Source: Tubulanus polymorphus | Lineage: Eukaryota; Animalia; Nemertea | NCBI RefSeq assembly: GCF_964204645.1 | Contig: NC_134026.1 | Span: 11,679,950-11,743,949 of the forward strand | DNA: 64,000 bases | Direction of reading: 5' to 3' | Shown here: positions 2,269 to 36,706 of the stretch, one piece after another | How the letters are laid out: each line of letters begins with the position of its first letter | Numbering within the stretch: position 1 is the stretch's first letter | Translations under genes and position numbers: made by a program | The notes under the pieces: generated by a model | What the model was told of the DNA's origin: nothing | Database searches by the model: none | What the model saw: only the letters and a program-made list of their open reading frames with translations

Positions 2269-2627
2269 TGATACAGAGGATAGTATTTATTTAATATCTA
2301 AGTCATTATTCAGTTTTCATTACAAACATGTTATACTATATTTCCGTATGTTAATCATATCAAAAGCAATATTGTCTTTATCTCTTTAATCCTAACCGTC
2401 CACTTCACTCGGCACTGGTCATTCGGACTTTGTCCTACTGACGTCTGGCCATTGTCTAGTGGAGCAATATAAATTCATGTCTCTCTATTCCTCGCTCTCT
2501 TTCTCTTTGGCTCTCGTTCTCTCTCTGAGCTCTTTTCTCTTTGACTCGTTTCAACAATAAATCAAGCTTTAAATTATTTCAATATCGTTTGTGTTTGGTG
2601 ACTATTCTGAGCTAGTTCCAGGTATCA
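2269..2627 (+). repeat. 5' LTR
   Basis: Direct repeat of 13237-13595 with no difference seen by eye; contains AATAAA. Confidence 0.97.
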
Positions 2628-2628
2628 T

Positions 2629-2638
2629 TGGTGGAGAA
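2629..2638 (+). promoter_or_regulatory. Primer-binding site, probably tRNA-Ala
   Basis: TGGTGGAGAA 1 nt after the LTR; complementary to the ...UUCUCCACCA 3' end of eukaryotic tRNA-Ala. Confidence 0.7.
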
Positions 2639-2810
2639 CCACGATCTCGGTAAGTGCATTTTTTTTAAAATTTACTTTCAATTATATCCACCCACTTTAT
2701 TCCGGTGCACTTATCTCGCATACCCCAAGCGAAGTGCTCTATCGTTACCATTTCTAGTTCCTTTCATTACTTTATTGATTTTATTCCTACAATTATTTTT
2801 GTTTCTTGCA

Positions 2811-4079: not shown

Positions 4080-4096
4080 GCACGGCTTGTATCAAC

Positions 4097-8500: not shown

Positions 8501-8535
8501 TCTTATCGTGTCGTTTTCCATCTATTTTTCAGACA

Positions 8536-11500: not shown

Positions 11501-11561
11501 TACTTATCTATATCTTTCATTCACGGATGGTAAAATGATTGCACTTCCGACACTTGATTAA
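8536..11561 (+). pseudogene. env: Env (class I, baculovirus F/errantivirus-like fusion glycoprotein), disrupted
   Basis: Signal peptide MMIYPIFFILMG after splice acceptor TTTTTCAG (8532); furin site and fusion peptide RSKR|GLLNFVGSISKSLFG; Cys-rich ectodomain; TM segments. Lesions: 1-bp frameshift near 8950, in-frame TAG 10776-10778, 534-bp tandem duplication. Confidence 0.85.
9141..10208 (+). repeat. In-frame 534-bp tandem duplication within env
   Basis: 9141-9674 repeated at 9675-10208; three substitutions seen. Confidence 0.95.
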
Positions 11562-17207: not shown

Positions 17208-18380
17208 AGGCGAATTCCAACCAAGATGAAGAATCCCTGTAGTGGTAGTTCAAGAGGAGGTGTTATCGAGTCGGCCCTGGGGCCGGGTTCAGATATTGGG
17301 ATCTGTCTATCGTCACTGACATTTCCGCTTCAGACTCAAGCCTTTTATTTATTTAATTTCATAGTTGTACCTCTCACCCCTCTCTCCCCCTAGATGTTCT
17401 TTCATAGCGTGAGTTAACCACATTTCGTACGAAATATTAGTTGAACGTGATTAGGCTGACGAGCCGTCATTTAGTGAGATATTGTGACCTTATCCTAGGG
17501 GTCTACTAGTAATACGAGTATTAAGAGTATTACGAGTATAAAAAGTATTACTATGAATGAGCACTACGAGTAGCGAGCAACATTCCATTTATAAATTTTG
17601 CGTTGTTGAGGCAATAAACATGTCTAACGTTACGTTTTACGAATAACGGTCTTATGTCTTTATTGAGTGGATTTCTGAGTCCGAGTCAGTTCAACCAGTT
17701 TCGGGAACAACTCTGGAACCGATAAGGACGCGCTACCCAGAACGAAGGAGTCCGAGTTGTTGTTGGTCGCCTTCAGGTTAAGGACGATTGGACTCGAAGA
17801 CCCACCTAGAATCGATATGAGGCACAACGTGTAGAGGGGATCCCCGACGAAGTTATTTGGCCCGACCCGTGCGTTAGCGAGGCCAAGCTGTAGACATCCT
17901 CGCTTGCTAGGGGTCCGGTATCACTCCCGAACTCGCTTCCACCAGCCCCCTGGCCTCACGAAGCGTGATTTCATTACTGGCGCTGTTGCGCGTGACGTCA
18001 TATATCGATTTGCGAAATACTTCCTTGTTCGGTAAAACGTTCGCTGATTGATCAATTTAACGGGAAAACCAACATAAGTCTACTGACGGTTTGTTACAAG
18101 CGCTGTGATTGGTACGACCGGATTCTGGTCGGCTAGTAACGACTCCAACGACTCGTGGGGTCAAGGGGTTCGGGGGAACAGCTTTAGCGTAGTAGTCAGC
18201 CAGCCAACCTTAAAAAACTATCCTAAAATTCGACGATCACGGCATTTTTTGTTACAGCTTGGCATCCGGGCTCATTTGATAGCAGAGTATGTGGGAGTAA
18301 TTGGGAAAGTAGGCTTTCAGGCCAGAGTACGAGAGTACTAGACACCACTCATCACCACAAGTAATTTTTTTTCCTTATAA

Positions 18381-18707
18381 ATGGGAGATAGAAAAGCATT
18401 CTTAGCAACAATAAATAACAGAATAAAACCAGCAAAAAAACAATTTGAAATAAAAAAGTTAGTTGATGTTACAAAAGAAATTGAACATAAAATATTGAAA
18501 TTAGAAAAGATAAAAACTAAATATGGAGAGAAAGTATCAGCTAATTTAAGCTACTGTAATGTTAGTACATCGCGAGAATTTAAAGTGTTTTTACCCGATA
18601 AATGGGTTTCATTGAGTACGGAGGAATTGAAAGATTTAGTAGGATTTAAAATAATATATCATGGGAAAAATGAAGACGGTCATCATGATTTAGAAATTGT
18701 TGATTGA
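18381..18707 (+). CDS. Hypothetical protein (starts inside the left TIR)
   Basis: 108-aa ORF preceded by the element's TAATTTTTTTT..ATAAATG motif. Confidence 0.7.
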   Translation: MGDRKAFLATINNRIKPAKKQFEIKKLVDVTKEIEHKILKLEKIKTKYGEKVSANLSYCNVSTSREFKVFLPDKWVSLSTEELKDLVGFKIIYHGKNEDGHHDLEIVD

Positions 18708-18713
18708 ATAAAA

Positions 18714-18748
18714 AATAAAAATAATGAATATCTAGAATCCAAAATGAC
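18714..18748. terminator. 35-bp repeat, putative 3'-end/termination signal (copy 1)
   Basis: 34/35 identical to 19593-19627; lies just downstream of the + strand ORF. Confidence 0.35.
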
Positions 18749-19050
18749 CTTAGTCGTTTTATAAACAACTACAATCATACAGTACATCTGTTACATGTTA
18801 TTATAAGAGAGTGCTTCATTTGAATATTGATCAATCAAACAGGTGTTGCACAACGTTGTTGTTATATAATAAGCACGCAGTACATACAACACACACAAGC
18901 CAGTTAGCTGGTATTGAATTACTACGTTTTCATTAGTTGCTGAAAACGAGGTTTATTTAAATTAGCTCAGCCGTGACAACAGGAGGATAGTCATCATTCT
19001 ATCGTGATTAAAAGGAATATTTCAATGTTTTTACGGTAAGTTTTAGCAAA

Positions 19051-19336
19051 ACCACCCGACTTGACTCGCAGAGTTTTTAGGGGATAAGCATCCCGTTATT
19101 GAGAGGCGCCACGAGATACCTATCCCCAAGCATTTCTACTTACACCCCTGTGACCCACACCTCACCAATTCTCCTTCAATGGTTGACAGGAAACACATTA
19201 TATTAAAGGCGCCTAATGCATTTCCTATCAACCCCTTACCCCCGAAAGGAGGATCGAAAGTCGAAACTGAAGGAGAACCACGGAGGGTGGACAAAGGTGC
19301 ATTTTCGAAATGCCCCTGCAAGCCAAGCCCGGCGGC
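19051..19336 (-). ncRNA. Putative highly structured viral ncRNA with two GGCGCC loops
   Basis: GC-rich island. Manual pairing on the minus strand gives a 22/23-bp closing helix and perfect 20-bp and 17-bp hairpins, with many G-U pairs that become A-C mismatches on the plus strand. TATATAA lies upstream at 19367-19361. Confidence 0.7.
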
Positions 19337-19592
19337 ACTCCAGTGGTTGAATGAATTACCTTATATACTTAGCTAAAACACCTAAGTAAATGTTGTTGGT
19401 GCTAAAAAAATATGTGAAATTTGAAATTATAAATTATTCCGAATGAAAAGAATGTAAGAATGAAAACTGATAAATGAATTATGTATTTTTAACTTAATTA
19501 TGATATAATTTTTAATCAAATTAGTAATCAATTACTATGTTAATTGATTAACAAATTCAAATTCAAATATTCAAATAAAAACAAAATAGATT

Positions 19593-19627
19593 AATAAAAA
19601 TAATGAATATCTAGAATCCGAAATGAC
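19593..19627. terminator. 35-bp repeat, putative 3'-end/termination signal (copy 2)
   Basis: Lies just downstream of the last gene of the minus-strand block; matches 18714-18748. Confidence 0.35.
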
Positions 19628-19712
19628 TTATCTGGATAATTTAATTGCTCCGCATAGATAGACAAAAGTAGTGAGATATTTAATTATTTTTTTTACTTTT
19701 TTTTCTAAAATA

Positions 19713-20081
19713 TTAATCCATTTTTTTTATTATCAATTTTGGAATTTCAGAAGTATTTTCATTTTTGATAGCAGTTGGTTCAGAATTACTAATATCATGA
19801 ATTTTATTTGATTTCTTATACCAATTACACCCAATCAAAATGAATACAATTACAAATCCAACTGTAAAATATAAATATTTATTAAATATTCTACTATCAG
19901 AAGGAGTAGAAATAACAATATTTTCACCATTTTTATTAACATTTTTATTACTTATTTTTTCTTTTACAGCTTTTTTATATTCTTGTGATTTAATTCCTAA
20001 TTGCCGAGACCATTCAATTTGTTTCTGAGTTCTCGGTTTTTTCTTCACAGTTAATTCCTTCACTTCTTTCACCTCGCTCAT
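19713..20081 (-). CDS. Hypothetical single-pass membrane protein
   Basis: TM segment YLYFTVGFVIVFILIGCNWY; TAAATG start. Confidence 0.75.
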   Translation of the reverse strand: MSEVKEVKELTVKKKPRTQKQIEWSRQLGIKSQEYKKAVKEKISNKNVNKNGENIVISTPSDSRIFNKYLYFTVGFVIVFILIGCNWYKKSNKIHDISNSEPTAIKNENTSEIPKLIIKKMD

Positions 20082-20619
20082 TTATTATAGAAATATTTTT
20101 ACTTTCAATATTTGAAAATGTTATAACCCCAGTTGATAATAATGTCATAAATCCACCTAATTGAAATGATAAATATCCAATCCATTTATTTAATTCAGTC
20201 ATAACTAAATAATCATTTTTTAAATCGGAATATAATCTATTTTCATCTTCAATTGGTAGTATATAATTACATAATTTACTATAACCTTTTACTACATTTT
20301 CTGATATCGCGTCATTAATTCTAGCTGTTCTCGCGGCTTCATAAATCTTAAATAATCTAATAATTTCATCTGATTTCATTGTATCTAATTCATTATAAGT
20401 TAAATTTTTACCGACAAAATTTTTACATTTTCCAGATGCTATTGATATTTCTAATTGATGTTTACAATAAATATAATATTCATAATTATTATTTGTTGTA
20501 ACATTATTTAAAGCACCATCATCTGGAGTTAATTTTGTTTCTGTTATTCCTAAATCATCTAAAGTTTTTTCAATTGGAACATCACCATTTTTAGATTTTA
20601 TTTTCTTTTCACCTACCAT
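20014..20619 (-). CDS. Hypothetical protein with C-terminal hydrophobic segment
   Basis: 201-aa ORF with the conserved upstream motif. Confidence 0.75.
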   Translation of the reverse strand: MVGEKKIKSKNGDVPIEKTLDDLGITETKLTPDDGALNNVTTNNNYEYYIYCKHQLEISIASGKCKNFVGKNLTYNELDTMKSDEIIRLFKIYEAARTARINDAISENVVKGYSKLCNYILPIEDENRLYSDLKNDYLVMTELNKWIGYLSFQLGGFMTLLSTGVITFSNIESKNISIINERGERSEGINCEEKTENSETN

Positions 20620-20651
20620 TTATATAACAAAAAAATTAATTGTGTGATGTT

Positions 20652-20903
20652 GCAACTAGAATTTAACTAGAATGTAACTAGAATTCAACTAGATTAACAA
20701 GCTAGTTGAAATATTGTTGTTTTTATTTATTTCTTGTTAAATCTAGTTGATTTTTTGTTTCAACTATTAACAACTAGAATTCAATTAGAATGTAACTAGA
20801 ATTAAACTAGATTAACAAGCTAGTTAAAATATTGTTAAATCTATTTGATTTTTGTTACAACTACCAATAACTAGAATTCAACTAGATTAACAAACTAGTT
20901 GAA
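20652..20903. repeat. Intergenic array of AACTAGA ~11-bp repeats with inverted CTAGTT copies
   Basis: Blocks of CAACTAGAATT.../AACTAGATTAACAAGCTAGTT repeated about three times. Confidence 0.85.
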
Positions 20904-20904
20904 T

Positions 20905-21513
20905 TTAAATAAATTCATATTTAAATGGGTGTTGTAATCTAAATAGTAATTTTGATCTTTTAATATTTTTCAACTTATCCATATATTCATTATGTAAATC
21001 ATGTGAAATAATATCATTTTCCTCAAGTGCATTTTTCATCGATTTTCTATCTTTATTGTAGAATAAAACTAGAAATCTAATGTTTTCTCTAAAGTCTTTA
21101 ACAATTGAATTATATTTTTGATTTAAAACCCAAGTTGTTATCCCAAAATGTCTACCAGAGAAAGCCAAATAACATAACTCACTTTCCCTAACTTTTGAAT
21201 CATGTAAATTTGCGCAATCATCTATGATAAATAATGTATTTGATCCTTTATAAATATCAATTGCTATTTTTATACAATTATCTAAATTTTCTTTTACTGT
21301 TTTAGGATCTAATATAATAAATTTATTATTCCTAGTAATATTTTTATCATAAGTTTGATTAAATTCATATGTTGGACAAAATAATACTATATTATCAAAA
21401 TAGTTTTCATAAACAGTTTCTAATAAATGTAATATAAAATAAGTTTTTCCACAATTTGTTACACCAGAAATTAACATATTATGAGGCTCAAATATGAATA
21501 ATTCCTTATTCAT
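20905..21513 (-). CDS. A32/FtsK-like DNA-packaging ATPase
   Basis: Walker A GVTNCGKT, Walker B LFIIDD, SGRH arginine motif, VLNQ, FREN. Confidence 0.92.
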   Translation of the reverse strand: MNKELFIFEPHNMLISGVTNCGKTYFILHLLETVYENYFDNIVLFCPTYEFNQTYDKNITRNNKFIILDPKTVKENLDNCIKIAIDIYKGSNTLFIIDDCANLHDSKVRESELCYLAFSGRHFGITTWVLNQKYNSIVKDFRENIRFLVLFYNKDRKSMKNALEENDIISHDLHNEYMDKLKNIKRSKLLFRLQHPFKYEFI

Positions 21514-22641
21514 TTATATATTTTTAATTTTACTTGATAATATCCATTCATTAAATTTATCTGGCCATCCAACCCTATTTACTAAAGAATATTTTTTTCT
21601 TTTAATAGTTTTTGTTTTTAATACTTTTTCAATTTTATATTCTTGTTCTAGATTTTCAGTAGTTAAACTTAATTCTTCTTCGTAAAAGTAGCCATCAACT
21701 TCTTCACCATCTAAATCTTCTAATTTATAGACATATGGTTTTGTTGTTATTACCTTTTTTATTTTATATATTTCCCTAGTAAAATTTCGATCGTATCCTT
21801 TGTCAAATATCTTTTTATACTTAGAAATTCTAACATTTTGACCAACTTTAAATTTAGGTTCACCAAAATCATCTACAAGAAATGCTCCATATAAATTATT
21901 CCAAACAATTTCAGCATTTTCAGGTTTTCTAGCATCAATAGGTTTCATTCCAATAGAAGAATGATAAGAATTATTATATCCTTCTATCAATTTTGGTAAA
22001 ACATCAATCCATTTAAAAGTATTATTTGCTGTAAAATATTTCCACATTCTTGTTCTTAATGTTCTATTAAATCGTTCAACAACTGCTGCTTTTTTATCTG
22101 ATTTTGTTGAAAAATTTTTAATATTATGATTATCTAAGAGTTCATGAACAAGTGAATTATCAAACTCTTTTCCATCATCAAATTGTATTTTTTCTGGTTT
22201 TAGTTTATCATCCGAAAGAAATTTTCTTAAAACATTTGATGTTTGTACAGCATCTTTTCTATAAAGTGGGAAACTCCATACATAACGACTAAAAATATCA
22301 ATTATATTCAATAACCACCAATAATCATCATTATCTTTCTTAACATTTTTCATATCAATTAAATCTCCTTGCCACTGTTGATCTACATAACTTACCATAG
22401 TTTTACGAGTTTTATATTTTCTAACAATTTTTTTATGTGTTGTATATGTTGGTTGTTCTAACATAAATTCATTTATATCTTTATATTTAACTAAATTTTG
22501 TGGGATTATCTTATCTAATTTATCTTGTTTTACTTTACGCCATATATTTTTAGTAGAAGAATAAGCAACCGAACTCTCAGGGTTGTAATATAAATTTCTT
22601 AAATATTGTTCTTTAGTATTAGGAGATTTTTTACCTCCCAT
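21514..22641 (-). CDS. Retroviral-like (rve) integrase with C-terminal chromodomain
   Basis: WQGDLIDM, IDIFSRY, DDGKEF, VERFNRTLR; KFKVGQNVRISK; IEKVLK..GWPDKFNEWI. Confidence 0.95.
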   Translation of the reverse strand: MGGKKSPNTKEQYLRNLYYNPESSVAYSSTKNIWRKVKQDKLDKIIPQNLVKYKDINEFMLEQPTYTTHKKIVRKYKTRKTMVSYVDQQWQGDLIDMKNVKKDNDDYWWLLNIIDIFSRYVWSFPLYRKDAVQTSNVLRKFLSDDKLKPEKIQFDDGKEFDNSLVHELLDNHNIKNFSTKSDKKAAVVERFNRTLRTRMWKYFTANNTFKWIDVLPKLIEGYNNSYHSSIGMKPIDARKPENAEIVWNNLYGAFLVDDFGEPKFKVGQNVRISKYKKIFDKGYDRNFTREIYKIKKVITTKPYVYKLEDLDGEEVDGYFYEEELSLTTENLEQEYKIEKVLKTKTIKRKKYSLVNRVGWPDKFNEWILSSKIKNI

Positions 22642-22671
22642 TTATATACGCTTAATTTTAACTTTATATTT

Positions 22672-23919
22672 CTAATATTGAATACTATCTAATTGTGAAT
22701 TTACAATATTTAATTGTGCGTCAGATAATATATAAATATGCATTTTAAAATTTTTGATTCCTTTATTCTTTTTCATGAATAATTGTATTCCATCTTTAGT
22801 GTTTTGTAGTTTTTTTCCAGAACCATGTAATGAATTATCTTCTGTTGTTCTAAAATCTAACCATAATGCATATTTATTACCGGTATAATAATCAATTTGA
22901 TTAATGTTACAATTTTCAGATGATTTTACTTTTTCATTCATAAAATGTTTTCTAATTTCTGGCCATTGATCAATCATTCTCATTCCTTGACAAAATATTT
23001 TATTTGCTATTCCTTCGATAGTTATTTCTACTTTTGTTATTTCAGGATTATAATAATTATCAACATTTATTGCACCATTAGAATATGTTGCAATAGTAAA
23101 AAATATTAATATACCTTTAATAGATCTTCTAGGAAAGTTAATATTCTCATTAATTATTTCATCATTTGCATTAATAGTTACAGTTTTAAATTTATCAATA
23201 TAATCATATAATAATGAAAATCCTTGATTGTATTGAGTTTGAATTGTGCTAGCAATATTTTCATTAGTTACTGTGTTATATTCTAAACATATATTTGATA
23301 ATTTATAACCCATATCTTTAACAACGCTAGATAATACAATTTCATTTACAGGAGCAAATGTTATCTCAAATATAATATCTTCTTGAATTGCGTATTTATA
23401 TAAAGGTGCATTATTATTTATCAATTCAAAGTCTAATGGAATTTTATATTTGCTTCCATAAATCTTTTTAATCAAATTATCTGTAGCACGAGTTACTACT
23501 GCATTATTGGCTTCAGATCTTAATTTATTATGGTTTTCCGATTGGATGCCTTGAAATATCATATTATTTCTATTTTCTTTAGTTAACCATAAATCTTTAT
23601 AATGCATAAATAAATTATAATCATCTAATGAGAAAACTGTTTCCGGACCAATCTTTATAGTTAATTTTTTAATCAAATATCTTCCAACATTATCAACAAC
23701 ATAATTGTTATCATGGCCAGTTACTTTTATATCGGCTGATAAATAAATACTGTTTGGAACATAAAAAGTATTTTGTGTTAATCGAGGGATTCTAACGTAT
23801 AAAGTTTCATCGGGATTAATATTAGAAGGGTTATGAGTAATTATATGATGTGATCTCTCTGCTTTAATAGCATTAGATATTCTATAATTCTTCGAAGGAC
23901 TTATATAACTCCCACTCAT
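22672..23919 (-). CDS. Putative double-jelly-roll major capsid protein
   Basis: 415 aa, beta-rich, no TM segment; size and position next to integrase and ATPase fit a Polinton MCP; not confirmed by search. Confidence 0.65.
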   Translation of the reverse strand: MSGSYISPSKNYRISNAIKAERSHHIITHNPSNINPDETLYVRIPRLTQNTFYVPNSIYLSADIKVTGHDNNYVVDNVGRYLIKKLTIKIGPETVFSLDDYNLFMHYKDLWLTKENRNNMIFQGIQSENHNKLRSEANNAVVTRATDNLIKKIYGSKYKIPLDFELINNNAPLYKYAIQEDIIFEITFAPVNEIVLSSVVKDMGYKLSNICLEYNTVTNENIASTIQTQYNQGFSLLYDYIDKFKTVTINANDEIINENINFPRRSIKGILIFFTIATYSNGAINVDNYYNPEITKVEITIEGIANKIFCQGMRMIDQWPEIRKHFMNEKVKSSENCNINQIDYYTGNKYALWLDFRTTEDNSLHGSGKKLQNTKDGIQLFMKKNKGIKNFKMHIYILSDAQLNIVNSQLDSIQY

Positions 23920-23953
23920 TTATTTAACAAAAAAATTAATTATTTATTTTTTA

Positions 23954-25405
23954 TCATGGTTTACTTGATATTTTTTTTGATATCATATTCACTAACCCAA
24001 AAATAATAGCACTTACAACAGTGATTAAAAATAAAATAATATGTTCAGCAGCAAAGTTAAGAATATTACCTGCAGATTTCAATATAAAACCAACAATTGA
24101 AGCAATAACTCCTGGCAATGCTGCAGCAGATTTTTTAGATAGTTCCCATAAATATTTTGCTAATTTCTTTAAACCATCTTTAACTTTATCTTGTATAGAA
24201 TTATTTCCTGGAGGTTTATCTGGTTTATTGGGAGTAGGAGTAGGAGTAGATTTCAGTGAATTTGATATAGCTAAACCTATTGTTGTAAATAACATAGTTA
24301 CAGCTGTTAGAATTGAAAGAATTGTTATTCCTTCTAATTTAAATAATAATCTTATTCTATCTTTTAATGATATTTCAGAATTTGGTTTAATCAACAAATC
24401 TTTAAAAATAACTTTTAATCTATTAATATTATAATCATATGATTTTAATAATAATTTAATTTCTTCTTTCTGAAATTCTATGTTATATTCTAAATCATCT
24501 TTTTCTTTTTCTAAACGTAATTCTTTTTGCCTATATTCTATTTCATCAATTACTTGATGATCTAAATCAGACTTTAGTTGTTCTATTTCTTTATTTTTAT
24601 CAGTTAATTCTTTTTCTAAAGTTCTAATTTTAAAATCTCTTATACTTTTATTATGTGCAATTTTATCAGATGCAAGTCTTATACTAATAATTTCTCTAAT
24701 TGCTTTATCAGAAAATATATCTAAATCTTCTAATTCTTGATCTGTTGCATCAAGTAATCCATTCGGTAAAAGTTTTTCAATTGGAACTTTATTTGATCTA
24801 TGTTTACTATTTTTGGAAGTTATATTCTGTTCAGAAGTTGTTTCTGTTTCTGATTTCTTTTTGATTATTTCAAATAATTCATTAATTCTTTGTTTAAATA
24901 CATCTATATTATCATCTATTTCTTTTTGTGTAACATCAGTTATTTCATTACTATTACTTATTATTTTAATTCTATCTGGTTTTAATTTTTCTAAAGTTGA
25001 TTCTGATAATATTTTATTTTTATTATTTTTATAAGTGATATCAATATAATAATCACCTTTCAAACGATAATAACATTTACCATTATCTAAAAATTTTAAT
25101 TGATCTGCTAAAAGTCCAACGTCTTCATCATTTATGTTAAAATTAGATTTTTCAATTAAATCTTCTAATTTAGGTATTTTGTTTAAATTATCTAAATCTT
25201 GTTTTACTAAATCTGGGTCTAAATTTTCAGGATTTAATTGTGATTCAGCATTTTTAATATAATCAGGCATATTTAAATTATTGTTATATTCTGGTTCATT
25301 ACCATCATTAAAACTTGTTTCATCAAAATCAGGTGGTTGTTCATCAGTTATACCAGGTTTATCAAAAGGATCCGTTCCAATATCTTCTACACCTTCTACT
25401 TCCAT
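23954..25405 (-). CDS. Coiled-coil protein with several C-terminal hydrophobic/TM helices
   Basis: Acidic N-terminus, heptad-rich middle, hydrophobic ITILSILTAVTMLFTTIGLAI and IILFLITVVSAIIFGLV. Confidence 0.8.
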   Translation of the reverse strand: MEVEGVEDIGTDPFDKPGITDEQPPDFDETSFNDGNEPEYNNNLNMPDYIKNAESQLNPENLDPDLVKQDLDNLNKIPKLEDLIEKSNFNINDEDVGLLADQLKFLDNGKCYYRLKGDYYIDITYKNNKNKILSESTLEKLKPDRIKIISNSNEITDVTQKEIDDNIDVFKQRINELFEIIKKKSETETTSEQNITSKNSKHRSNKVPIEKLLPNGLLDATDQELEDLDIFSDKAIREIISIRLASDKIAHNKSIRDFKIRTLEKELTDKNKEIEQLKSDLDHQVIDEIEYRQKELRLEKEKDDLEYNIEFQKEEIKLLLKSYDYNINRLKVIFKDLLIKPNSEISLKDRIRLLFKLEGITILSILTAVTMLFTTIGLAISNSLKSTPTPTPNKPDKPPGNNSIQDKVKDGLKKLAKYLWELSKKSAAALPGVIASIVGFILKSAGNILNFAAEHIILFLITVVSAIIFGLVNMISKKISSKP

Positions 25406-25421
25406 TTATATAATAAAAAAA

Positions 25422-26810
25422 TTAAAATTTAAAATATAATATTCCTCCGATTACAATTCCTATACAAGTTATAGCTAATTTAGTATTTTCATGTGATTTA
25501 TTATCATTATCAGTTTTAATTATATCATGTTGAATTTTATCAGTTTTTATATTTTCTAATGTATTGTAATCTTTTATTTTGGAATCATTATTTAATTTAA
25601 TATTCTTAGTTTTAGTTTCTGTTGATTGAATATGTTTTTTATTTTTTTCACCTTCCATTAATTTTGGAGCAGTAATAATCTTTTTATTTATATCATTTAA
25701 CCCAAATGAATTATTTATTGTTGCAGTTTTAATTAGATTATTATAACCAATTATATTTCCCATCTTTAATACTAAATCATTAGAAATAATTAACAGATTA
25801 GGGCCTATACAATAATTAAGTCTTAAATGAGATTTATCTAAATAATTTTGATATCTTATAATGTTTTCTGGAATCGATCTATTTTTATCATTATGAATTG
25901 AATCTTCAAATAAAACTTTAAATTGTTTTTGTGTATCGAATGATGTATTCAAATTTCCAATTATCGGTGATCTTGTTTCAACTTGTGATCCTAGAATACA
26001 AATCAAATAAGTTCTAATAGATTGATTTATTCTTTCTATACCTGATTTAGTAAAACCTTCACTATTTTCTAAAATAAAATAAACCCAACCATTATTGTTT
26101 TCTTGTTTTAAATGATCATAAAATTTCGGTAATTTATTGAAATTTAATGTTTCTAAATCCTTTGTTTCTATTTTACCATAACCTAATTTTTTATTATAGA
26201 TATTATAAAAACTATTAGATGGTATAGGAAGTGCACAATATTCTGCAATCTTTCTAGGGCAAGGAAGTGATCTTATTGTTCCAATTTTTATTCTAAAATC
26301 AGAATTATTTATATCTATATTAAATTCATTGCAAATTTTATAAAACTTTGATAAATTAATATTATTATCTAATTCTTTAAAATATCTAGATCCTGGTAAA
26401 GCGCACTCTAATTCATTTAATATTATTCTGATTTGAAAGTATGTATGAAATCTAAATAAACTTTGAATTAATTTATATTTAGAATTATTCAAATGATCAT
26501 TCCAACTAATTCCACATCCTGTTGTTGCACAATAAACAGCAAAATTTAATTGATTCTGCCAATACTTCATATTAGATTTTAATAACCATTGTTTTTCATC
26601 TTTCAATTTTTTAAAATCAATTAAATATACATGAAATATATTTTCCATCTTTGCATTAAAATTATTAGTTTCAGTAACATAAATATATAAATCAATTAAT
26701 GAATCTAAAACTTCATTTCTATATGTAATATCTTTATTAAAATCTATTGCTGGAATATTATATTTAATTGATTTATTATATTGGAAAGCTTTTGGAAAAC
26801 TATCTGCCAT
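25422..26810 (-). CDS. Hypothetical protein with C-terminal membrane anchor
   Basis: 462-aa ORF ending LAITCIGIVIGGILYFKF; conserved upstream motif. Confidence 0.8.
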   Translation of the reverse strand: MADSFPKAFQYNKSIKYNIPAIDFNKDITYRNEVLDSLIDLYIYVTETNNFNAKMENIFHVYLIDFKKLKDEKQWLLKSNMKYWQNQLNFAVYCATTGCGISWNDHLNNSKYKLIQSLFRFHTYFQIRIILNELECALPGSRYFKELDNNINLSKFYKICNEFNIDINNSDFRIKIGTIRSLPCPRKIAEYCALPIPSNSFYNIYNKKLGYGKIETKDLETLNFNKLPKFYDHLKQENNNGWVYFILENSEGFTKSGIERINQSIRTYLICILGSQVETRSPIIGNLNTSFDTQKQFKVLFEDSIHNDKNRSIPENIIRYQNYLDKSHLRLNYCIGPNLLIISNDLVLKMGNIIGYNNLIKTATINNSFGLNDINKKIITAPKLMEGEKNKKHIQSTETKTKNIKLNNDSKIKDYNTLENIKTDKIQHDIIKTDNDNKSHENTKLAITCIGIVIGGILYFKF

Positions 26811-26826
26811 TTATATAATTAAAAAA

Positions 26827-27261
26827 TTAATAATTTATTAATTCTTTTAATAATTTATCTTGTTCTTCAACTGTTATATGACCATTTAAACTTATTATAT
26901 AATCTAGTGTGTTCTTTAATTTATTAATTTCTTTTATATTAGTTTTAATTTTTTCTTTATTACTTTTTATATTTAATTTTGAACTTATACCAGTTAAAAC
27001 ACTTGAACTTAATCCTAATACACCAATTGATATAGCTAAAGGTGTTAATGGGCTGAATATTGCTAGAAATGTTATTACAGAACTAATTGTAACCGAACCA
27101 CTAATAATAAGATAATATATAATTTTACTTTTTAAATATTTTTTCTTTTTTATCTTTAAGTCACTTTCAAATTCTAATATTTGTTTTTCTAAATATGTTT
27201 TTAATTTAGTTTTATTTATATCATGAGGAATAATATCAATACTATCAACTTTATCTTCCAT
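26827..27261 (-). CDS. Two-TM hairpin protein flanked by coiled coils
   Basis: IIYYLIISGSVTISSVITFLAIF and LAISIGVLGLSSSVL. Confidence 0.8.
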   Translation of the reverse strand: MEDKVDSIDIIPHDINKTKLKTYLEKQILEFESDLKIKKKKYLKSKIIYYLIISGSVTISSVITFLAIFSPLTPLAISIGVLGLSSSVLTGISSKLNIKSNKEKIKTNIKEINKLKNTLDYIISLNGHITVEEQDKLLKELINY

Positions 27262-27280
27262 TTATTTAGAAAAAAAATTA

Positions 27281-27703
27281 CTAATTAGTAAACTTATAAG
27301 CAACAAATATAACAATAACTGTTCCACCTAAAATCCATATTATTTCATATTTCTGTTGTTCTTTACTTGGGGTATAATAATCTGATAATTTAGGTTTGTA
27401 AAGATGTAATTTTTCTTTATTTGTTACCGCGTTATATAAACTCATAGCATCATCAACTGATTGAAAATCTCTATGTGAAATCTTCTGATCATATAATTCT
27501 TTATTGATGTAATCCATATAGTTTTGTCTCTTTTCTCTATATTCTTCTGCAGCTTTATTGTATTTCTCTAACGCTAAGTTATGTCTTCTTTGTTCTCCTA
27601 ATGAACTATTTTTATCAATATGTTTAAATAAATAACCACCACCAGTAAATGCTAAAGCGTTAACAATTGCCGATCCTATAATAGTTATAATTGCAGAAGC
27701 CAT
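27281..27703 (-). CDS. Small protein with N- and C-terminal hydrophobic helices
   Basis: MASAIITIIGSAIVNALAFTGGGYLF...IIWILGGTVIVIFVAY. Confidence 0.8.
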   Translation of the reverse strand: MASAIITIIGSAIVNALAFTGGGYLFKHIDKNSSLGEQRRHNLALEKYNKAAEEYREKRQNYMDYINKELYDQKISHRDFQSVDDAMSLYNAVTNKEKLHLYKPKLSDYYTPSKEQQKYEIIWILGGTVIVIFVAYKFTN

Positions 27704-27727
27704 TTATTTAGCAAAAAAATTATGCAT

Positions 27728-27949
27728 TTATATGGGAGGAATATATTTTTGTTTTTCCAAATAATCAATTGTTAAATTAGATAAAGTAACTGCTAATGTT
27801 AACTTTAAAATATCATTTATATCAAATCTATCAACATTAACACTTCCCATTTTGAATACTTTTTTTAATACCATTGAATAACCAACAGTTCCAACTGATA
27901 GTAAGGCGCCATTATATAATCCAGTTATTATCCACTTATTATCACTCAT
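27728..27949 (-). CDS. Small hydrophobic protein
   Basis: 73-aa ORF with the conserved upstream motif. Confidence 0.7.
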   Translation of the reverse strand: MSDNKWIITGLYNGALLSVGTVGYSMVLKKVFKMGSVNVDRFDINDILKLTLAVTLSNLTIDYLEKQKYIPPI

Positions 27950-28133
27950 TTATTAATCAAAAAAATTACTATCATCAAAATATTTAGTTAACTTAGTGAT
28001 GATTATTTCAACATTTATTTCATTACTAGTTTCATTTGTATATATTTCAATTATTATTTTTTTGATATCATCGATGATAAAATCTTCATCTAATTCATAA
28101 AATCTTAAAGATTCTCTAATTAAATTAGTAATC

Positions 28134-28245
28134 TTATATAATAAAAAAATTAAAATTTAAAATATAATATTCCTCCGATTACAATTCCTATACAAGTTAT
28201 AGCTAATTTAGTATTTTCATGTGATTTATTATCATTATCAGTTTT
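28134..28245. repeat. 112-bp ectopic copy of 25406-25517
   Basis: Exact match by eye; sits where the polB/intein reading frame is cut off. Confidence 0.9.
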
Positions 28246-31200
28246 CTTCCAATGTTTCAGGTTCTATATTATAAATATTATCAATTATTTCATCAAATGA
28301 CATATGATTCATTCTTGGGTAAAATCTTTTATGTAATAATTCATCTCCAATTTTTATATCAGTTGGTTTTATTTCATCGCCATTTTGTTTAATTAAACTA
28401 TGATCTTCTGTAACATCTACAAATCCTAATTTAGTTCTAACTCTATAGATTTTCTTATTCGTTTTATGTCTAATAATATTATTTAATTTTTTCCATCCAT
28501 TTCTTGTCCAAACATCTATTAATCCATTTATTTGTATTAATTCTTTTTCACCATATGAAATATAAGATTTATTTTGATTAGGAATTATTTCTGAAATTCT
28601 TCTAATTAATATTTGGTTATTGTATTTTAATAATATTGGGGTGTCAGCTGTTACAGAATCAAAATATAATATTTCTATATGTTTTTCTCCAAAAAGTGGT
28701 TGTAAAACATTATAATAAAAATCATACATTAATAATTTTGATACTTCTAAAACAGTTGAACCAATAAATATAGGTTTATTAAATTTCATTGACGTTCTTT
28801 TTAATTTAACTGCTGTTAAATAATCTTCAAATCTTTTATTTCCTAAATGTCTAGGACTTGATTGTAAATGTCTTAATCTTTCAGAATTATTTACTAATTC
28901 AATATCATTTCTATTTCTAATATTTTCACATGTTTTACCATAAAAACTATTATTCATTAATTTGAAGAAATCTTTTTCAAAATCTGTTTTTGATATGGTT
29001 CTCTGTTGAGTATTGAAATCTATATATTTTTCTAACCACTTCGATTGATTAAATTCAATATATCTATGTACTTTCTTTAATTTCATTCCTTGTTTTAGAT
29101 AAAATTTTAACATTCTATAATGAACAATATAATTGTATTTATTATTTTGAGTAAGTATTAATTTTTCCGTAAAAACATGATCTTTCGGTTTTACTTTCTT
29201 CTGGTATTCACTTAAATAACTATCATCTACGGCTAAATGTTCTGGGCAATATGGCAAGTTTCTAGATTTAAATTTAATATGTTCAGGATATTCTAAATCA
29301 ACTACAAAGAAATAACCAATTGGTGCTTCATCTTTTAAACTCGTAATTGCGCTTTCCCAATCAGTTTTATCATCATTTTCAACTTCTGTTAATATAAAAT
29401 TTTTATATGGTTGAGGTTGCATCATTGCCCAACCATATAAATTATTGGCGTCAATATATAATAATTTATATTCATCATTTGCTTTAAAATACCTATCTCC
29501 CATAACACCACTAATTCCACCTCTAATTGATTTTTCAAATAATAAAACCATATCTGGTTCTTTTAATAAATCTAATTCTACATTTGTATATTTTAAACCA
29601 CATTGCCAGGTTAAACCAGGACTTGAATAACAATAACAAGGATCAACATTAAAATGGTTTAGATTAACTTCTCTAAACTTTTCAAATATATCTGCCAATA
29701 TCATAACATCTGATTTTAAATATAAATCAACTAATTCACCATGATTTTTCATATTAAAATGGTTCCAAATATTTAATGTTCTATTAAAAACTTCGTCTTT
29801 CACATACTCCTCTTTTAATTGATCATAAAATTGATCTTTTAATAATTCTGTTACATTAAAATCATCATGTGTTTTATAAAATTAATAAGGAATTGCGCCT
29901 TTATATCTCAATAATTTAAAATCTTGTACATTTGGATAATAATATCGAGTTATAATAAAATCATTATCAACTAATGATTTTGATAAATTATCTAATGAAC
30001 TTGCTAGAAATCTATAAGAATCTAAAAATCTAATGCAACCAAATTGAAATGAAATATAATTTTCAGATGTTTTAGCTAATAGTTTAAAATCATATTTTCT
30101 TACATTTGCTTCATTCATAGCATTATATTCTTCTATTTCTTGATTAATTGCACCCAATTTTCCCGATAATTGTTTTATAAATAGATGGGTATCATATCCT
30201 GATAAATTATGAAATAATATTGGTACGAAATTTACTTTTTTAGCTTGTAAATTGCAATCTTCATGAGCAGCTCCACGATATTTTGAATTTAAATGATCAT
30301 GATCTCTAACTTTTTTATCAAATGAATAAAAACGTTTTTCACAGTAACAACAATGAGTTGCATAATTAAAATCAATTTCATCTTCTTTTGTCATAACTAT
30401 TCTTTTATTTTTGTTTAATAATTTTGTAAAATCACTTTCTAATTCAATCATTTTATCACAAAAATCATTAACTACATTTTCACCTCTAAAAGAAATATAT
30501 TGACTTTCATATAATTCGAGATAATTTGATTTTATATAAATTCCATAAGCAGCAGCTCTTTGATGAACTTTTTTAATTGTATTTATAATTGGTGGGTCTT
30601 GTATTGTGTCTTCATTTAATTCATTTCCTTTATCCATTGATTTTAATAATTGCTTTTTGTTATATATTTCTTTTCTATCTTGATCAGTTAATTCTTTATT
30701 CAACGATTCAAAATCCCCATAAATTACAAATGGAACAATATTTTTAAATTTATGATTAGTAAATTTCAATTTATAATCTTTTTCTGTTGGCATTATTAAT
30801 TTACAAAAATCTTTATTATCACATAATTCTTTATGTTTTAATAATGTATTCTCAGTCATAAATTTAGATAAACATTTTCTACATAGATAAATTTTATTAT
30901 GATGATCACTTTCTGTTCTAAAGAATAAATCAATTTGTTTTAACCACATATAATGTTCATTTTCATCTTTTTTGTAATATAACAAATCTATAGCATTTTC
31001 ATCATCATAATATTCTGTTAAATATAAAGCTTCCAATGTATAATCTTTAATATTTTCACCTTTTGTCTTTGGTAATTGCATTAATTCAAATATATTTATT
31101 TTTAAATTATTAACTTTTTCTATTTTAGGAATCATTTTTATAGTTACTGGATATTGATCAATTTTATATAATGTTTCATATTTCCGGTAATCTGTTATTC

Positions 31201-32200
31201 TATAAACATGTTCTTCTGTTGGATGTAAGCAACTAATAATTGACCATAGAAAACATTTATTATCTTCATTTTGAATATTTATTACTGCTTTTGTTATAAA
31301 TGGTAATTTGATATAACTTGATGCTTTCATATCTTTTTCTGTTATAAAGTTTGAATCATTTTTAAACATTTTATTACTTTTTGATGTTTTATTTCTTTTT
31401 GTATTATAAACATTTAAATCTAAATATATAATTTCATTCAATGTTAAACCAGAACCCTCAAAATATCTTTCTTCAATATGACGTTTAAATTCATTTAATA
31501 TTTTTTCTAACTTCTCTTTTATTTGTGTTTTTGAAATTATTTCTTCAGAGAGTGTTTGAATATTATAATCCATTTTTTCTTCTGACTTTATAAAACTTAC
31601 TTTCCCAGAGATACTAATTTTTGGATATTCAACATCTGTTATCAAATCTAGTATTTTTTCTATTATTTCATTAAATTTACTATAATCTTCTATTGTTGTA
31701 CCTTTAAAGAATCTAAATATAATAGCTGCAGGGCCAATTTTACTATGTAATGTTTCTAAAATTTCAATTGTATCTTTTATTTCTAGTGAATCAATATAAT
31801 TTCTAACATTTTCCATGTAAGGTTTATTTGAAATGGATTTTGTTTTTGAAGTTGATTCTTTTACTTGTTGAGGTTTATTATCAAAATATTCTAATCCTAA
31901 AACATTTTTATTTAAATTTTTGTAATGTTTTTGTGATTCGAGATGTCTATTATAATTCCTTTTTACTATAAATTCGTTACAAACTTCACATTTTATTTCA
32001 TCCACATTCATATTTTCTAATCGTTCTTTTCTTTCATTAGAATTTTCTGGAGTTTCAAAATCTATTACATTTTTTATATGATTTGCAGATTTTTCATGTT
32101 TAGATTTATTAGATTTATCAATGTATTTTTTACAATATGGACAATAATATTGATTTTTATTGACATTATTGTTTTCTGGCTGGTGTTCATTCTCCCCCAT
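28238..32200 (-). pseudogene. polB: Protein-primed family B DNA polymerase with one nonsense codon and a truncated C-terminus
   Basis: N-terminal zinc fingers; YGDFES, FHNLSGYD and YLKSDV exonuclease motifs; DHDH..AHEDCN EndoVII-like insert; YIDANNLYG (motif A); KLMNNSFYGK (motif B). The two ORFs are in one frame, separated by TAA at 29882-29884. Confidence 0.93.
28246..28657 (-). other. Intein N-terminal splicing region inserted in PolB motif C
   Basis: Motif C Y-F-D is followed by SVTADTPILLK (block A), VWTRNGWKK, VDVTEDHSL (block B TxxH) and IKIGDEL instead of TDS. Confidence 0.88.
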
Positions 32201-35099
32201 TTATTAGGAAAAAAAATTACTTGTGGTGATGAGTAAAAAAAAAAAAATTACTTGTGGTGATGAGTGGTGTCTAGTACTCTCGTACTCTGGCCTGAAAGCC
32301 TACTTTCCCAATTACTTGTGGGCTATCATGTGTGGTGGATGCCTTTTACAATTTTTTCGTTTTTTGGCCTACAGGGGGCGTTAAAGTCAGACATTTTGAA
32401 ATTAAAACATCTTCATTTTCATTCGTCAAGGAAATACACTTTAAACTACTTTTGCTAAATAATTCGAATATCTCATCTTAGGTTTGGAGTAATTTTACAA
32501 TCTAAACCTTTTCTGAGTTGGGGGATTGCAGTGCATATAGCGCAACGTTAATTTTATGCATACATTCATTTGTTACCTAGTTACAGCAGCAACAATCGTG
32601 TAATATTCACTTGAAAATAGCAATTTCATATGAAATATTCATTTTAAAGGTTATTAGCTCAAATAGTGATGTTGTTAATGTTTTTTTGTTGATTATTTTG
32701 ATATTTCTTTAAACTTACTTATAACTCGTATGTACTTGGTCAATATCGGGATTAACTGTTTATTGGTTTCTATGGTAACAGCAATTCAAATCTGCGTTCT
32801 TCATCCGTCAGGTACCGGTATTTTGGGCGTTGGGTCTTTCGTGACAGACAGACAATAGTTTCTAAATCATAAGCGAAATGACGCAGTTGAGGCGGTAGGG
32901 TTTGAATAATTTGCTCGATCTCTAGAAAACCTTTAATTATACAGCGTAAGCTGCTTGCACTAATTCCTTTGTCTTTTTGTCTAAAGTCATGTTAAATTTG
33001 TGAGGCCCAGTAAAGTTCCAGGTTCTTCACTGACTGATAGTCGGTGGACCTGTGTTTAAATCTGCAGACTTAGGCCTGTACATGGGTTACCATTGTTGCA
33101 ATTCAATTGTTAGCAAGACGTAGTAATAAGCGGCCCAATACATGGCCGAAGACTTTAGGCAAGTTTGAGAACATTTGGAATGTCACGAAAGACCCAACGC
33201 CCAAAATACCGGTAGGCCTCTGACGGCGGATGAAGAACGCAGATTTGAATTGCTGTTACCATAGAAACCAATAAACAGTTAATCCCGATATTGACCAAGT
33301 ACATACGAGTTATAAGTAAGTTTAAAGAAATATCAAAATGATCAACAAAAAACATTAACAACATCACTATTTGAGCTAATAACCTTTAAAATGAATATTT
33401 CATATGAAATTGCTATTTTCAAGTGAATATTACACGATTGTTGCTGCTGTAACTAGGTAACAAATGAATGTATGCATAAAATTAACGTTGCGCTATATGC
33501 ACTGCAATCCCCCAACTCAGAAAAGGTTTAGATTGTAAAATTACTCCAAACCTAAGATGAGATATTCGAATTATTTAGCAAAAGTAGTTTAAAGTGTATT
33601 TCCTTGACGAATGAAAATGAAGATGTTTTAATTTCAAAATGTCTGACTTTAACGCCCCCTGTAGGCCAAAAAACGAAAAAATTGTAAAAGGCATCCACCA
33701 CACATGATAGCCCACATACTCTGCTATCAAATGAGCCCGGATGCCAAGCTGTAACAAAAAATGCCGTGATCGTCGAATTTTCCATGATTGGCTGGCTGAC
33801 TATAGTGGGTTCGAATCCCTTGACGGGTGAAGATGAGCTGTAGACCAGTACTGAGCGGCGGTATATTATCTGGCGCAGCCGTTGTGAGAAAATCTGGCCC
33901 GGAGAGCCAGTCGGTTACTGTGCCCGGCCTATTCGGTTACATTAGTACCGCCAGCGTTACTGGCGATTGTTAAAGTAGGCAGTGGACTTGTTGTTTACTA
34001 CATTTACATTACCCACTTAACTTAGAGCAACGCGTGACATCACGTATTATGACCTAGATTTTACGCTTACGAACTAGACTTTAGGATCTAACTTCAACAG
34101 CGGAATGTTCGATATCAATAAAGGTAATTTGTTTTTGAATTTGTTGTCTTTGACCCAAAGATCGCGGCTCGAAAAAATAAAGTGTGAATTGAATTGGTGG
34201 TGTTTATGCAGGGAAAAGCCAATTATCCGAGGCTGAGGCTGTGCATTGCAGATGTAAGTATAATCAACGAATTACAGCAAGGTTTGGTGCCCTCATTCAA
34301 AAATCGGGCACGGCAAGAACCACAGGGACTTATCACAATTGATATAGTTAGTTACCTAATCGTTGGTGGTTAAGTTTTTTAATCGGATCGGATGGGCTTA
34401 TACCACCAACGTTTACTTTAGGGATGACAAGGAAGGGCCAAAGGCAAAACACGGTTGAAAAAAGTAACACTTCAAAAATATACTTTCTATTCACTTCAGT
34501 CCACAATTAATGGCTTAAATCACAAACTAACACAGGTACCTTTCGAAGTAATCCAATTTGGAAGTTGCCGCGCATGCGCAGTAGTTTCCGCCGCATCATT
34601 ACGGTCACAGGCAAAAGCGAAGCCGTTTCATCCCTTGTTATTTTAATATAGTAAGGTGTCGCGCCCGCTGATACTATTACTGATCCTTAACAGCCAATTG
34701 TTTATCGAAACTCTATAGTGGATAAATAAACAACATCAACAAGAGGTATTTCTGTGATATTTTGAATTTATTTGCAGTTTAAATTTAGCACCATTCTCGC
34801 GAGATTATCAACAACCCGGAAGTAAAATCCAAGCCAGTTTACAAGCCCCTGTGCTTTCATACCCCCTCCCAAAATTTTTTATTTCTGTTTATTATTAATC
34901 AGGGAGGTCTGTAGTCAGTAACCTATGCATGATAGACTATGTGACCTATAAGGATTTATATGCCTAAAACTTTCAAGACGAAACGACAATTTTTTTTTTG
35001 GATAGTTTTCCAACTTATATTTCAAATCTTCGTGTTTTCCACAATAAATGATGAAAAATAAATTCTGATTGAAGAAAATGTGAATAAGTGTTGATTTCT

Positions 35100-35482: not shown

Positions 35483-36706
35483 CAATTGATAGTGAATGAA
35501 TATAACCAGTATCAGTGACCAACCCCAGTATCCCTCCTGTATAATAAAAATCAAGGGTGGCAACTACTAATCATCAATCTGAAAATAACCTCTCCACTTC
35601 AATCGACTGTAATTCCAAAAATCCTCAACCGATTCACATAAAATTAGCTTTAATACAAACTAGAAGACTTTTTGCTTCCAACGAGCCTATAACGATCACT
35701 GTAGGCCTACGACAAATATCTCACAACGAAATTGGCGTTTATTTACCGGAGATAGCTCAAAATGGAGGTGTACAGATTCTATGGTGGACAGCAAAATGGC
35801 AATTTTATTTCTGGGTTGTTGATAATCTCGCAAGAATGGCGCTAAATATGAACTGCGAATAAATTCAAAATATCACAGAAATACCTTGCGTTTATATTGT
35901 TTATCTATCCGCTATAAATTTCTGATAAAAAAAATGGTCGTTAAGGATCATTATCAGACGGTCGTGATGGTCTATATAAAATCACAAGGGATGAAACGCC
36001 AGGCCTCCGCTGTACTTAAATTGTCAGCCAGAAAGTTGGGACAGTCACGTGACATTCTGATGATGTCATCACATTTAAAACTTTAACATGAAAAGTTAAC
36101 ATATTCACAGATGGATATCAATTGTCAGATTATGATTCATATGAAATTAATAACTCATAAAGAATAAATTATGATCAAATATACAATTCATAGACAAAAA
36201 ATGCATTTGAATGTAAGTTATTCTCAAATATTTGTCGTATCATAGTTTCCATCTTAGATGTTTCAGGTTCACATTCACTCAAATAAGAAGCGTTAAGGTC
36301 ACGTGACTGTCCCAACTTTCTGGCTGGCACGACTTGAAGGCGTTTCACCCCTTGTGATTTTATATAGTAACGTGTTGCGACCATCTGATGATGATCCTTA
36401 ACGACCAATTGTTTATCGGAACTTTATAGCGGATCAATAAACAATATAAACAACAGGTATTTCCATGATATTTTGAATTTATTCGCAGTTCATATTTAGT
36501 GCCATTCTCGCGAGATTATCAACAACCCGGAAAGAAAACCCGAGCCCATCGCCAAATCCCTGTGGTTTTTTCACTTGAAACAATATTTTCTATGTGAAAT
36601 TTTTAGAGATAACCCTAACAAACTTATTTCTTATCAATGTTTTTTGATTTTTTTATGTTCTTCATTGATTTTTTTCCAATAAAGATGTTGTGAATTTGAC
36701 TTTGAT

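Follow-up and report, generated by a model that had tools for sequence, protein, structure and literature searches.

A Maverick-Polinton of 14,021 bp, integrated at positions 18296-32316 of a 64-kb stretch of Tubulanus polymorphus contig NC_134026.1, bears the letters ATAAATG at the start of each of its genes. (The window is this whole 64-kb stretch, and coordinates are positions in it.) At most of these starts, TAAATG is preceded at a fixed distance by a TAA followed by six to eight T's. We propose, with moderate confidence, that the 19-nt stretch TAA-T6-8…TAAATG acts as a post-replicative promoter. A co-infecting large DNA virus of pox type would supply the RNA polymerase and late factors that read it, and the element would then be a Mavirus-like provirophage of an animal. 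We infer the helper; a poxvirus is the best fit to the motif, and another Nucleocytoviricota lineage is possible.

A fixed motif at the gene starts

ATAAATG occupies all 12 gene starts (18381, 20081, 20619, 21513, 22641, 23919, 25405, 26810, 27261, 27703, 27949 and 32200), as the first-pass annotation of the window had claimed; since the starts at 18381 and 32200 are the same terminal-repeat sequence, the number of independent starts is corrected to 11. Among the element's 501 other ATGs, TAAATG occurs 31 times (6.2%) and ATAAATG 13 times (2.6%). The enrichment of TAAATG over the 11 independent starts (p ~5e-14) is about equal when the spacers only are taken as the null (44 TAA in 703 nt). Nine starts also carry TAA-T6-8, the exceptions being 20081, 21513 and 22641, again as first noticed. 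In 9 of these 9 the distance from the first letter of the upstream TAA to the ATG is 19 nt, and the 22-nt composite, TAATTTTTT-N6-ATAAATG, occurs nine times in the window, always at a gene start, and in none of 100 shuffles. The start-site motif is real and far beyond chance.

Numbered from the T of TAAAT, the upstream TAA lies at -16 to -14 and the T's run from -13. Position -10 holds a T in 11 of 12 starts versus 11 of the 31 TAAATG sites that are not starts; the corresponding counts are 9/12 versus 0/31 for six T's at -13 to -8, and 12/12 versus 8/31 for AA at -15/-14. The three starts without a T-run are A-rich, and those of the integrase and the ATPase carry TAAAATT at -16 to -10. These three may form an intermediate-type class, a weak assignment (n = 3) because two of them overlap coding sequence. 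No early-type promoter class was seen among the element's starts; PolB and the integrase also begin at TAAATG.

The genes are tightly packed, in line with the earlier description: open reading frames (ORFs) are uninterrupted, seven junctions have spacers of 0-34 nt and one is an overlap, but one spacer reaches 285 nt. That the motif is a translation or packing signal only, be it a start codon overlapping a stop, an AT-rich context around the start or, within a polycistronic unit, a trans-splice acceptor, is nevertheless very improbable. The genes are co-oriented, one start abuts a stop, and at the two junctions with a 16-nt spacer the preceding gene stops on the motif's first TAA, so that these spacers hold nothing except the motif. 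Yet the TAA of TAAATG itself is an upstream stop at one of the 12 starts only (that of the ATPase) and at one of 52 TAAATG starts in the relatives described below, and the motif is kept at divergent gene pairs, at genome ends and in contigs of 36-44% GC. Animal start contexts prefer a purine at -3, where the motif places a disfavoured T. Trans-splicing fits poorly as well: no AG lies between T-run and ATG in any of the nine T-run starts (0/9), and the next AG falls in varying frames. AT content, stop-start overlap, start-codon context and trans-splicing were thus rejected as explanations on the background counts, the divergent pairs and the GC-richer relatives, and the expectation that the motif exceeds what AT content and abutting stops and starts would yield has held.

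Proposed promoter layout in the element and across its clade

As described in PMC11980589, the vaccinia late promoter consists of TAAAT, in most cases completed by the G of the start codon, plus upstream T's of which the one at a distance of ten bases is conserved, and the intermediate promoter of TAAA with an AT-rich block 15-19 bases upstream; the T-rich core of poxvirus late promoters is placed 5-7 bp from TAAAT in PMC5294985. The nine T-run starts match the late layout in both features, with TAAATG over the start and a T at -10 among T's, at a spacer of 5-7 nt. To judge from the parts of PMC11980589, PMC5294985 and PMC12917281 that treat these promoters, vaccinia late and intermediate promoters share with the element TAAATG, the T at -10, the 5-7 nt spacer, an A/T-rich block at -14 to -16 and a minority of starts with an A-rich core. 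Unlike in vaccinia, the core is near invariant (TAA-T6-8), and it sits on a 14-kb element in which neither an RNA polymerase gene nor an early-type class was found. From its layout and conservation, the promoter reading is well supported at the level of sequence. The first-pass view of TAAATG as a poxvirus post-replicative initiator is strengthened by the late-promoter layout, by conservation across the clade, GC-richer members included, and by back-to-back motifs between divergent genes, a setting in which stop codons play no part.

The T-run had also been likened to the poxvirus early terminator TTTTTNT, a reading that we reject, since the run is tied to starts and not to stops. It precedes starts that have no nearby gene end (18381, 32200, 20619 and 27949), and several stops have no such run behind them. 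T5NT falls below expectation on both strands (sense, 7 versus 12.3 expected; antisense, 72 versus 92.5). The T-run thus reads as a promoter core rather than an early terminator. A check for splice-donor depletion in the window (5 versus 6.9 expected) was uninformative.

Relatives were gathered with a capsid alignment, which yielded 44 metagenome loci; 31 were counted and 13 dropped as near copies or short fragments. These are partial contigs, mostly from environmental metagenomes, and their starts were taken as the first ATG of ORFs with a homologue or of at least 200 codons. In the closest group (4 loci, capsid identity 71-76%, GC 21%), 26 of 30 starts are TAAATG against a background of 5.3%; in the next (9 loci, capsid identity 50-58%, GC 35%), 26 of 34 against 3.1%. 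The 13 relatives combined thus have TAAATG at 52 of 64 starts, and contigs of 36-44% GC are included. Several of the other starts are TAAATA or internal ATGs of broken genes. A T at -9 to -11 peaks in the window and in both TAAATG groups. Five independent divergent gene pairs (L002, L009-L013) have the form CATTTA…TAAATG with 19-30 nt between the ATGs, and at that distance there is no space for a TATA box and a leader. A quick capsid tree of 40 rows, with SH-aLRT as its sole support measure, has a branch (support 96) that sets the 14 TAAATG rows apart from the others, and the TAAATG elements appear to be one capsid-tree clade. The 11 distant loci have TAAATG at 1 of 60 starts, a poor control because most of their genes are broken.

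Basal relatives (40-47% capsid identity) differ: TAAATG stands at 0 of 43 starts, and TATA lies within 20 nt of 29 of 32 hand-picked starts versus 148 of all 1167 ATGs. In two GC-rich basal members, a AAATTTTC core lies at -18 to -11, before TATA (18 starts), and the same core with a TATA initiator 3-20 nt ahead of the ATG was observed in L018, L022, L015, L016, L020, L025 and L026. A VLTF3-like protein (PF04947) is encoded by L018 (E 6e-4) and L022 (E 4e-5); the window and the TAAATG loci hold no counterpart of its gene, which is also missing there from the place that it takes in L018 and L022. The African swine fever virus (ASFV) late layout, given in the relevant parts of PMC5294985 and PMC7163114 as TATTT at -15 to -11, TATATA at -1 to +5 and short leaders, fits these basal relatives, with their TATA initiator and T-rich core at -15 to -12. 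It does not fit the window element, where the initiator is TAAAT fused to the ATG. Under midpoint rooting, the TATA type appears basal in the capsid tree and the TAAATG type derived. The AATAAA signal is depleted in the TATA-type group (10 versus 18.1 expected), which hints that this group could be nuclear.

A proposed helper virus and its rivals

We favour transcription by a helper because one fixed motif stands at every start, across the clade, and no transcription gene was found in the element: RNA polymerase, TBP, TFIIB and VLTF3 had no match in it or in the ORFs scanned in the TAAATG clade. Precedent exists in Mavirus, all of whose genes are described as following the late promoter of Cafeteria roenbergensis virus (CroV) (PMC6723459), and elements of the mavpol2 clade are reported from entomopoxvirus occlusion bodies. 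A virophage lifestyle would show in promoters shared with a helper; the match of the motif, at 12 of 12 starts here and 52 of 64 in the relatives, is to the published poxvirus consensus rather than to the promoters of a particular helper. Lacking an early-type promoter, the provirus would stay silent until a helper infects, by analogy with Mavirus. Its genes would then be expressed, its own protein-primed PolB would copy it, probably within the cytoplasmic factory of the helper, and after packaging it would re-integrate through its own integrase. By analogy with vaccinia, transcription would begin inside the AAA, and slippage would add a non-templated poly(A) leader, whereby the T at -3 would be replaced by A. 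Vaccinia post-replicative mRNAs are described as carrying such a leader (PMC7163114).

The first-pass annotation had taken the intein in PolB as independent support for a helper virus. It sits at a YxD|S site (28238-28657, minus strand), and its N-terminal part has 187 relatives. Among the best 120 of these 187, which were examined, 17 lie in Polinton PolB (grouped by their flanks, 2 with PF03175), 91 carry PF00136, 11 are type II topoisomerases and 1 is unannotated. A quick tree of 71 rows places the Polinton inteins together (support 84) among the others. The intein suggests contact and traffic with large-DNA-virus-type polymerases and topoisomerases, but nothing in it points to poxviruses in particular. 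The intein of one further Polinton PolB, P0122, has a LAGLIDADG domain.

Several observations weigh against a pox-type helper. Neither the window nor the relatives showed a pox-derived gene, and of two intein-carrying polymerases checked neither is pox-like, one being Pol delta-like and the other matching PDB 8ywg/9l8u, whose entry listing says only 'DNA polymerase' and which we take to be the ASFV polymerase. TAAATG starts also occur in two giant-virus fragments from metagenome-assembled genomes (L070, 4/10; L079, 5/11). The relatives are partial, so a transcription-factor gene could lie outside their contigs, and no function is known for several of the conserved genes. That AATAAA is not depleted in the element's coding strands (66 in 12.1 kb versus 58.8 expected), unlike in the basal relatives, counts in favour of a helper, but the test is blunt in that the window's nuclear retroelements are likewise not depleted (13 versus 9.6). 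This broken copy cannot show present activity, and the model has still to account for the access of a nuclear provirus to the polymerase of its helper. Searches of viral_contigs picked out no helper lineage: the strict composite motif gave 39 single matches and no clustering, and the back-to-back motif at least 121 loci, 4 of which, among the matches listed, have ORFs of at least 60 aa both ways.

The giant-virus fragments and the intein relatives in non-pox polymerases speak for a helper other than a poxvirus, drawn from another lineage of Pokkesviricetes or Megaviricetes whose late genes also begin at TAAATG. That the relatives stem for the most part from environmental metagenomes, and that a limited literature search found no marine-invertebrate poxvirus, suits such a helper too. 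The described poxvirus late layout nonetheless has just this T at -10 and this spacer of 5-7 nt, the late motifs described for asfarviruses, mimivirus and CroV differ from it in the accounts available, and we consider this alternative improbable. Somewhat less so, though still unlikely, is an autonomous nuclear virus in which a factor encoded by the element or the host would steer host RNA polymerase II to the motif, the pox likeness being convergent or inherited. The element does integrate into nuclear DNA, several copies related to it exist, and basal L018 and L022 pair their VLTF3-like protein with an AA-TTTT core before an initiator of their own; VLTF3 is also known, from partial accounts, in some polintoviruses and small mriyaviruses. 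However, no such factor was found in the window or the scanned ORFs of the TAAATG clade, where the VLTF3-like gene is missing from its place, and with PolB and integrase under the same motif there is no separate early class to make the factor first. The initiator, moreover, overlaps the ATG and leaves no leader, and AATAAA is dense in the coding strands.

A broader, more tentative extension of the helper model, which we judge possible and short of probable, is that a family of animal Polintons would be virophages of Pokkesviricetes that have switched helpers, with basal members keeping asfarvirus-type late promoters and their own VLTF3-like gene and the derived clade having gained poxvirus-type promoters and lost that gene. 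The asfarvirus-like layout in the basal relatives suggests that promoter motifs could be used to assign helpers to Polintons. If the switch took place, pox-like and asfar-like invertebrate viruses yet to be discovered would have left a fossil record in Polinton promoters, and the copies integrated in animals might serve as inducible antiviral provirophages. Should transcription by a pox-type helper hold, the clade-wide late promoters would explain silence in normal tissue, the Mavirus provirophage model would extend from protists to animals, and an undiscovered helper virus would be predicted.

Gene content, setting and known systems

The element has 24% GC, versus about 35-45% in its flanks, and is bounded by copies of the 6-bp target-site duplication TGTGGG (18290-18295 and 32317-32322, both on the plus strand). 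Its left terminal inverted repeat (18296-18383, plus) begins with AG and has 77 nt exact, followed by a shared TAAT8-N5-TAAATG; the right one (32198-32316, minus) holds a short tandem duplication. The left repeat contains the composite motif (18362-18383, plus) of a 108-aa gene (18381-18707, plus), whose product has as its closest named cluster PF17427, Phi29 SSB (score 0.88, 44% of members), and a fold model of pLDDT 49; a single-stranded DNA-binding protein is possible, as a lead only.

The remaining genes lie on the minus strand. PolB, protein-primed, is split into a first frame of 772 aa (29882-32200), closed by an in-frame stop after codon 772 and starting at the composite motif 32198-32219 in the right terminal repeat, and a broken second frame (28238-29881) that ends within the intein beginning at 28657. 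Both frames align with P0122, itself matching PF03175, and an OTU domain at the PolB N-terminus had no match in a Pfam comparison of the window and P0122. The rve integrase (21514-22641; PF00665, E 2.7e-10) and the A32-like packaging ATPase (20905-21513; PF04665, E 1e-12), whose start abuts the integrase stop, are two of the genes without a T-run. Ahead of the integrase lies the double jelly-roll major capsid protein (22672-23919; composite motif 23917-23938). Its model (pLDDT 84) has Chlorella virus PBCV-1 and iridovirus capsids as top Foldseek matches (E 5e-16), and nucleocytovirus capsids rank above those of Mavirus and Sputnik.

Seven conserved genes with hydrophobic segments, none with an assigned function, lie within 19713-27949. 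The third start without a T-run, inside the upstream ORF, belongs to a 122-aa gene with one such segment (19713-20081). The others have the composite motif: a 201-aa conserved gene with a hydrophobic C-terminal part (20014-20619; motif 20617-20638), a 483-aa gene with C-terminal hydrophobic segments (23954-25405; motif 25403-25424, the first TAA of which is the upstream stop), a 462-aa conserved gene with a hydrophobic C-terminal tail (25422-26810; motif 26808-26829), a 144-aa gene with a weak SLATT match of two transmembrane segments (26827-27261; motif 27259-27280), a 140-aa conserved gene with hydrophobic ends (27281-27703; motif 27701-27722) and a 73-aa conserved hydrophobic gene (27728-27949; motif 27947-27968). 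The 201-aa and 462-aa families had no useful match in Pfam, PDB or the atlas. Neither a minor capsid gene nor a protease gene is present in this copy, and no protease matched in the relatives' scanned ORFs, this copy being internally deleted and the relatives partial. The seven hydrophobic-segment genes, together with the lack of a protease match, may indicate a membrane-containing virion.

This copy is broken, with PolB interrupted by the stop and then cut off inside the intein, at a point where a 112-bp exact duplicate of 25406-25517 is found (28134-28245, minus). Directly behind the duplicated promoter stretch is a start-less open frame of about 55 codons (27971-28133, minus), for which a homologue search was empty. 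With raw DNA reads that bear the same species label, coverage over the greater part of the element is about 230- to 1000-fold (one bin, 87), versus 75-100 on the least covered flank, and the reads are mostly 90-99% identical to the element; from this depth and identity, several related copies exist. Some copies skip an 873-bp stretch of higher GC that lies between 35-nt repeats (18710-19582), as observed for 26 reads in X7 and for a single contig in X1. The one long intact spacer, after the ATPase, holds an AACTAG/CTAGTT repeat array with 11-nt and 118-nt periods (20653-20898), possibly an origin or binding array; in L001, L002 and L005, different repeat arrays adjoin the ATPase or the 201-aa homologue. 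An Rfam scan of the element returned one sub-threshold microRNA match and no group I intron.

The insertion site is one arm of a host element with inverted arms of about 500 nt (18225-18295, 32317-33781). The flanks also contain a gypsy element with a chromodomain and an F-type envelope (2616-11561, plus), a Penelope-type ORF with reverse transcriptase (RT) and GIY-YIG domains (36683-39067, plus), a SCAN-domain gypsy with integrase before RT (55159-59433, minus) and a DDE fragment, and the gypsy, Penelope-type and DDE content points to an animal genome. Elsewhere in the TAAATG clade we observed deoxynucleoside kinase genes (L001 10340-10981, minus; L007 2898-3380, minus) and related HNH-like genes at varied positions (L002 5568-6083, L007 1717-2448, L008 3289-4023, L017 2278-2898), all of the latter starting at TAAATG. 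A search of viral_contigs by capsid protein, capsid alignment or ATPase alignment gave no relatives, and one of genome_contigs gave two short fragments of less than 800 bp.

By the defining features laid out in Barth 2024 (PMC11296320, as far as its text was available), the element is a Maverick-Polinton: it has a protein-primed PolB (broken here), an rve integrase, terminal inverted repeats with a 6-bp target-site duplication, a double jelly-roll capsid and an A32-like ATPase. It shares PolB, rve integrase, terminal inverted repeats, A32 ATPase, double jelly-roll capsid and an animal genome with the animal Maverick-Polintons, or adintoviruses, as described in PMC8502044 and bioRxiv 10.64898/2026.06.19.733378. 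Unlike these, it has several hydrophobic, probably membrane, genes, a PolB intein and a uniform promoter motif. Because the adenain protease that defines adintoviruses in Starrett 2021 was not found in this internally deleted copy or its partial relatives, we do not file it as an adintovirus. Nor do we place it in the virophage taxon, for which a virophage-type capsid and a maturation protease would be expected: its capsid fold is nearer to those of nucleocytoviruses, and no protease was found. The available text of both papers does not contain the word 'promoter', and the bioRxiv report states that the virion of an animal Maverick-Polinton has never been seen. Among titles and abstracts, we found none describing a TAAATG motif in animal Polintons; subscription journals lay largely outside this search, and supplements might hold such a description.

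A link between Polintons and poxviruses is already known from co-packaging (PMC11296320), where the main text, as available, uses neither 'promoter' nor 'transcription'. Compared by their descriptions there, the entomopoxvirus Polinton-like viruses AHEV_PLV1, AHEV_PLV2 and CBEV_PLV1 likewise belong to the Polinton supergroup and are proposed hyperparasites of poxviruses, and two of the three are divergent members of the mavpol2 capsid clade. They differ in that their link is co-packaging in occlusion bodies and that they have a tyrosine recombinase or no known integrase, whereas the present element has PolB, an rve integrase and a 6-bp target duplication. Closest in proposed lifestyle are Mavirus and the endogenous Cafeteria provirophages (PMC6723459). 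From these the element departs in its animal host, its pox-type TAAATG in place of the CroV TCTA, a capsid nearer to those of nucleocytoviruses, the lack of a protease match and a helper that we infer. In common with them, according to the accessible description, it has a protein-primed PolB, an rve integrase, a capsid, an ATPase, integration into the host and a single helper-type late promoter on all of its genes.

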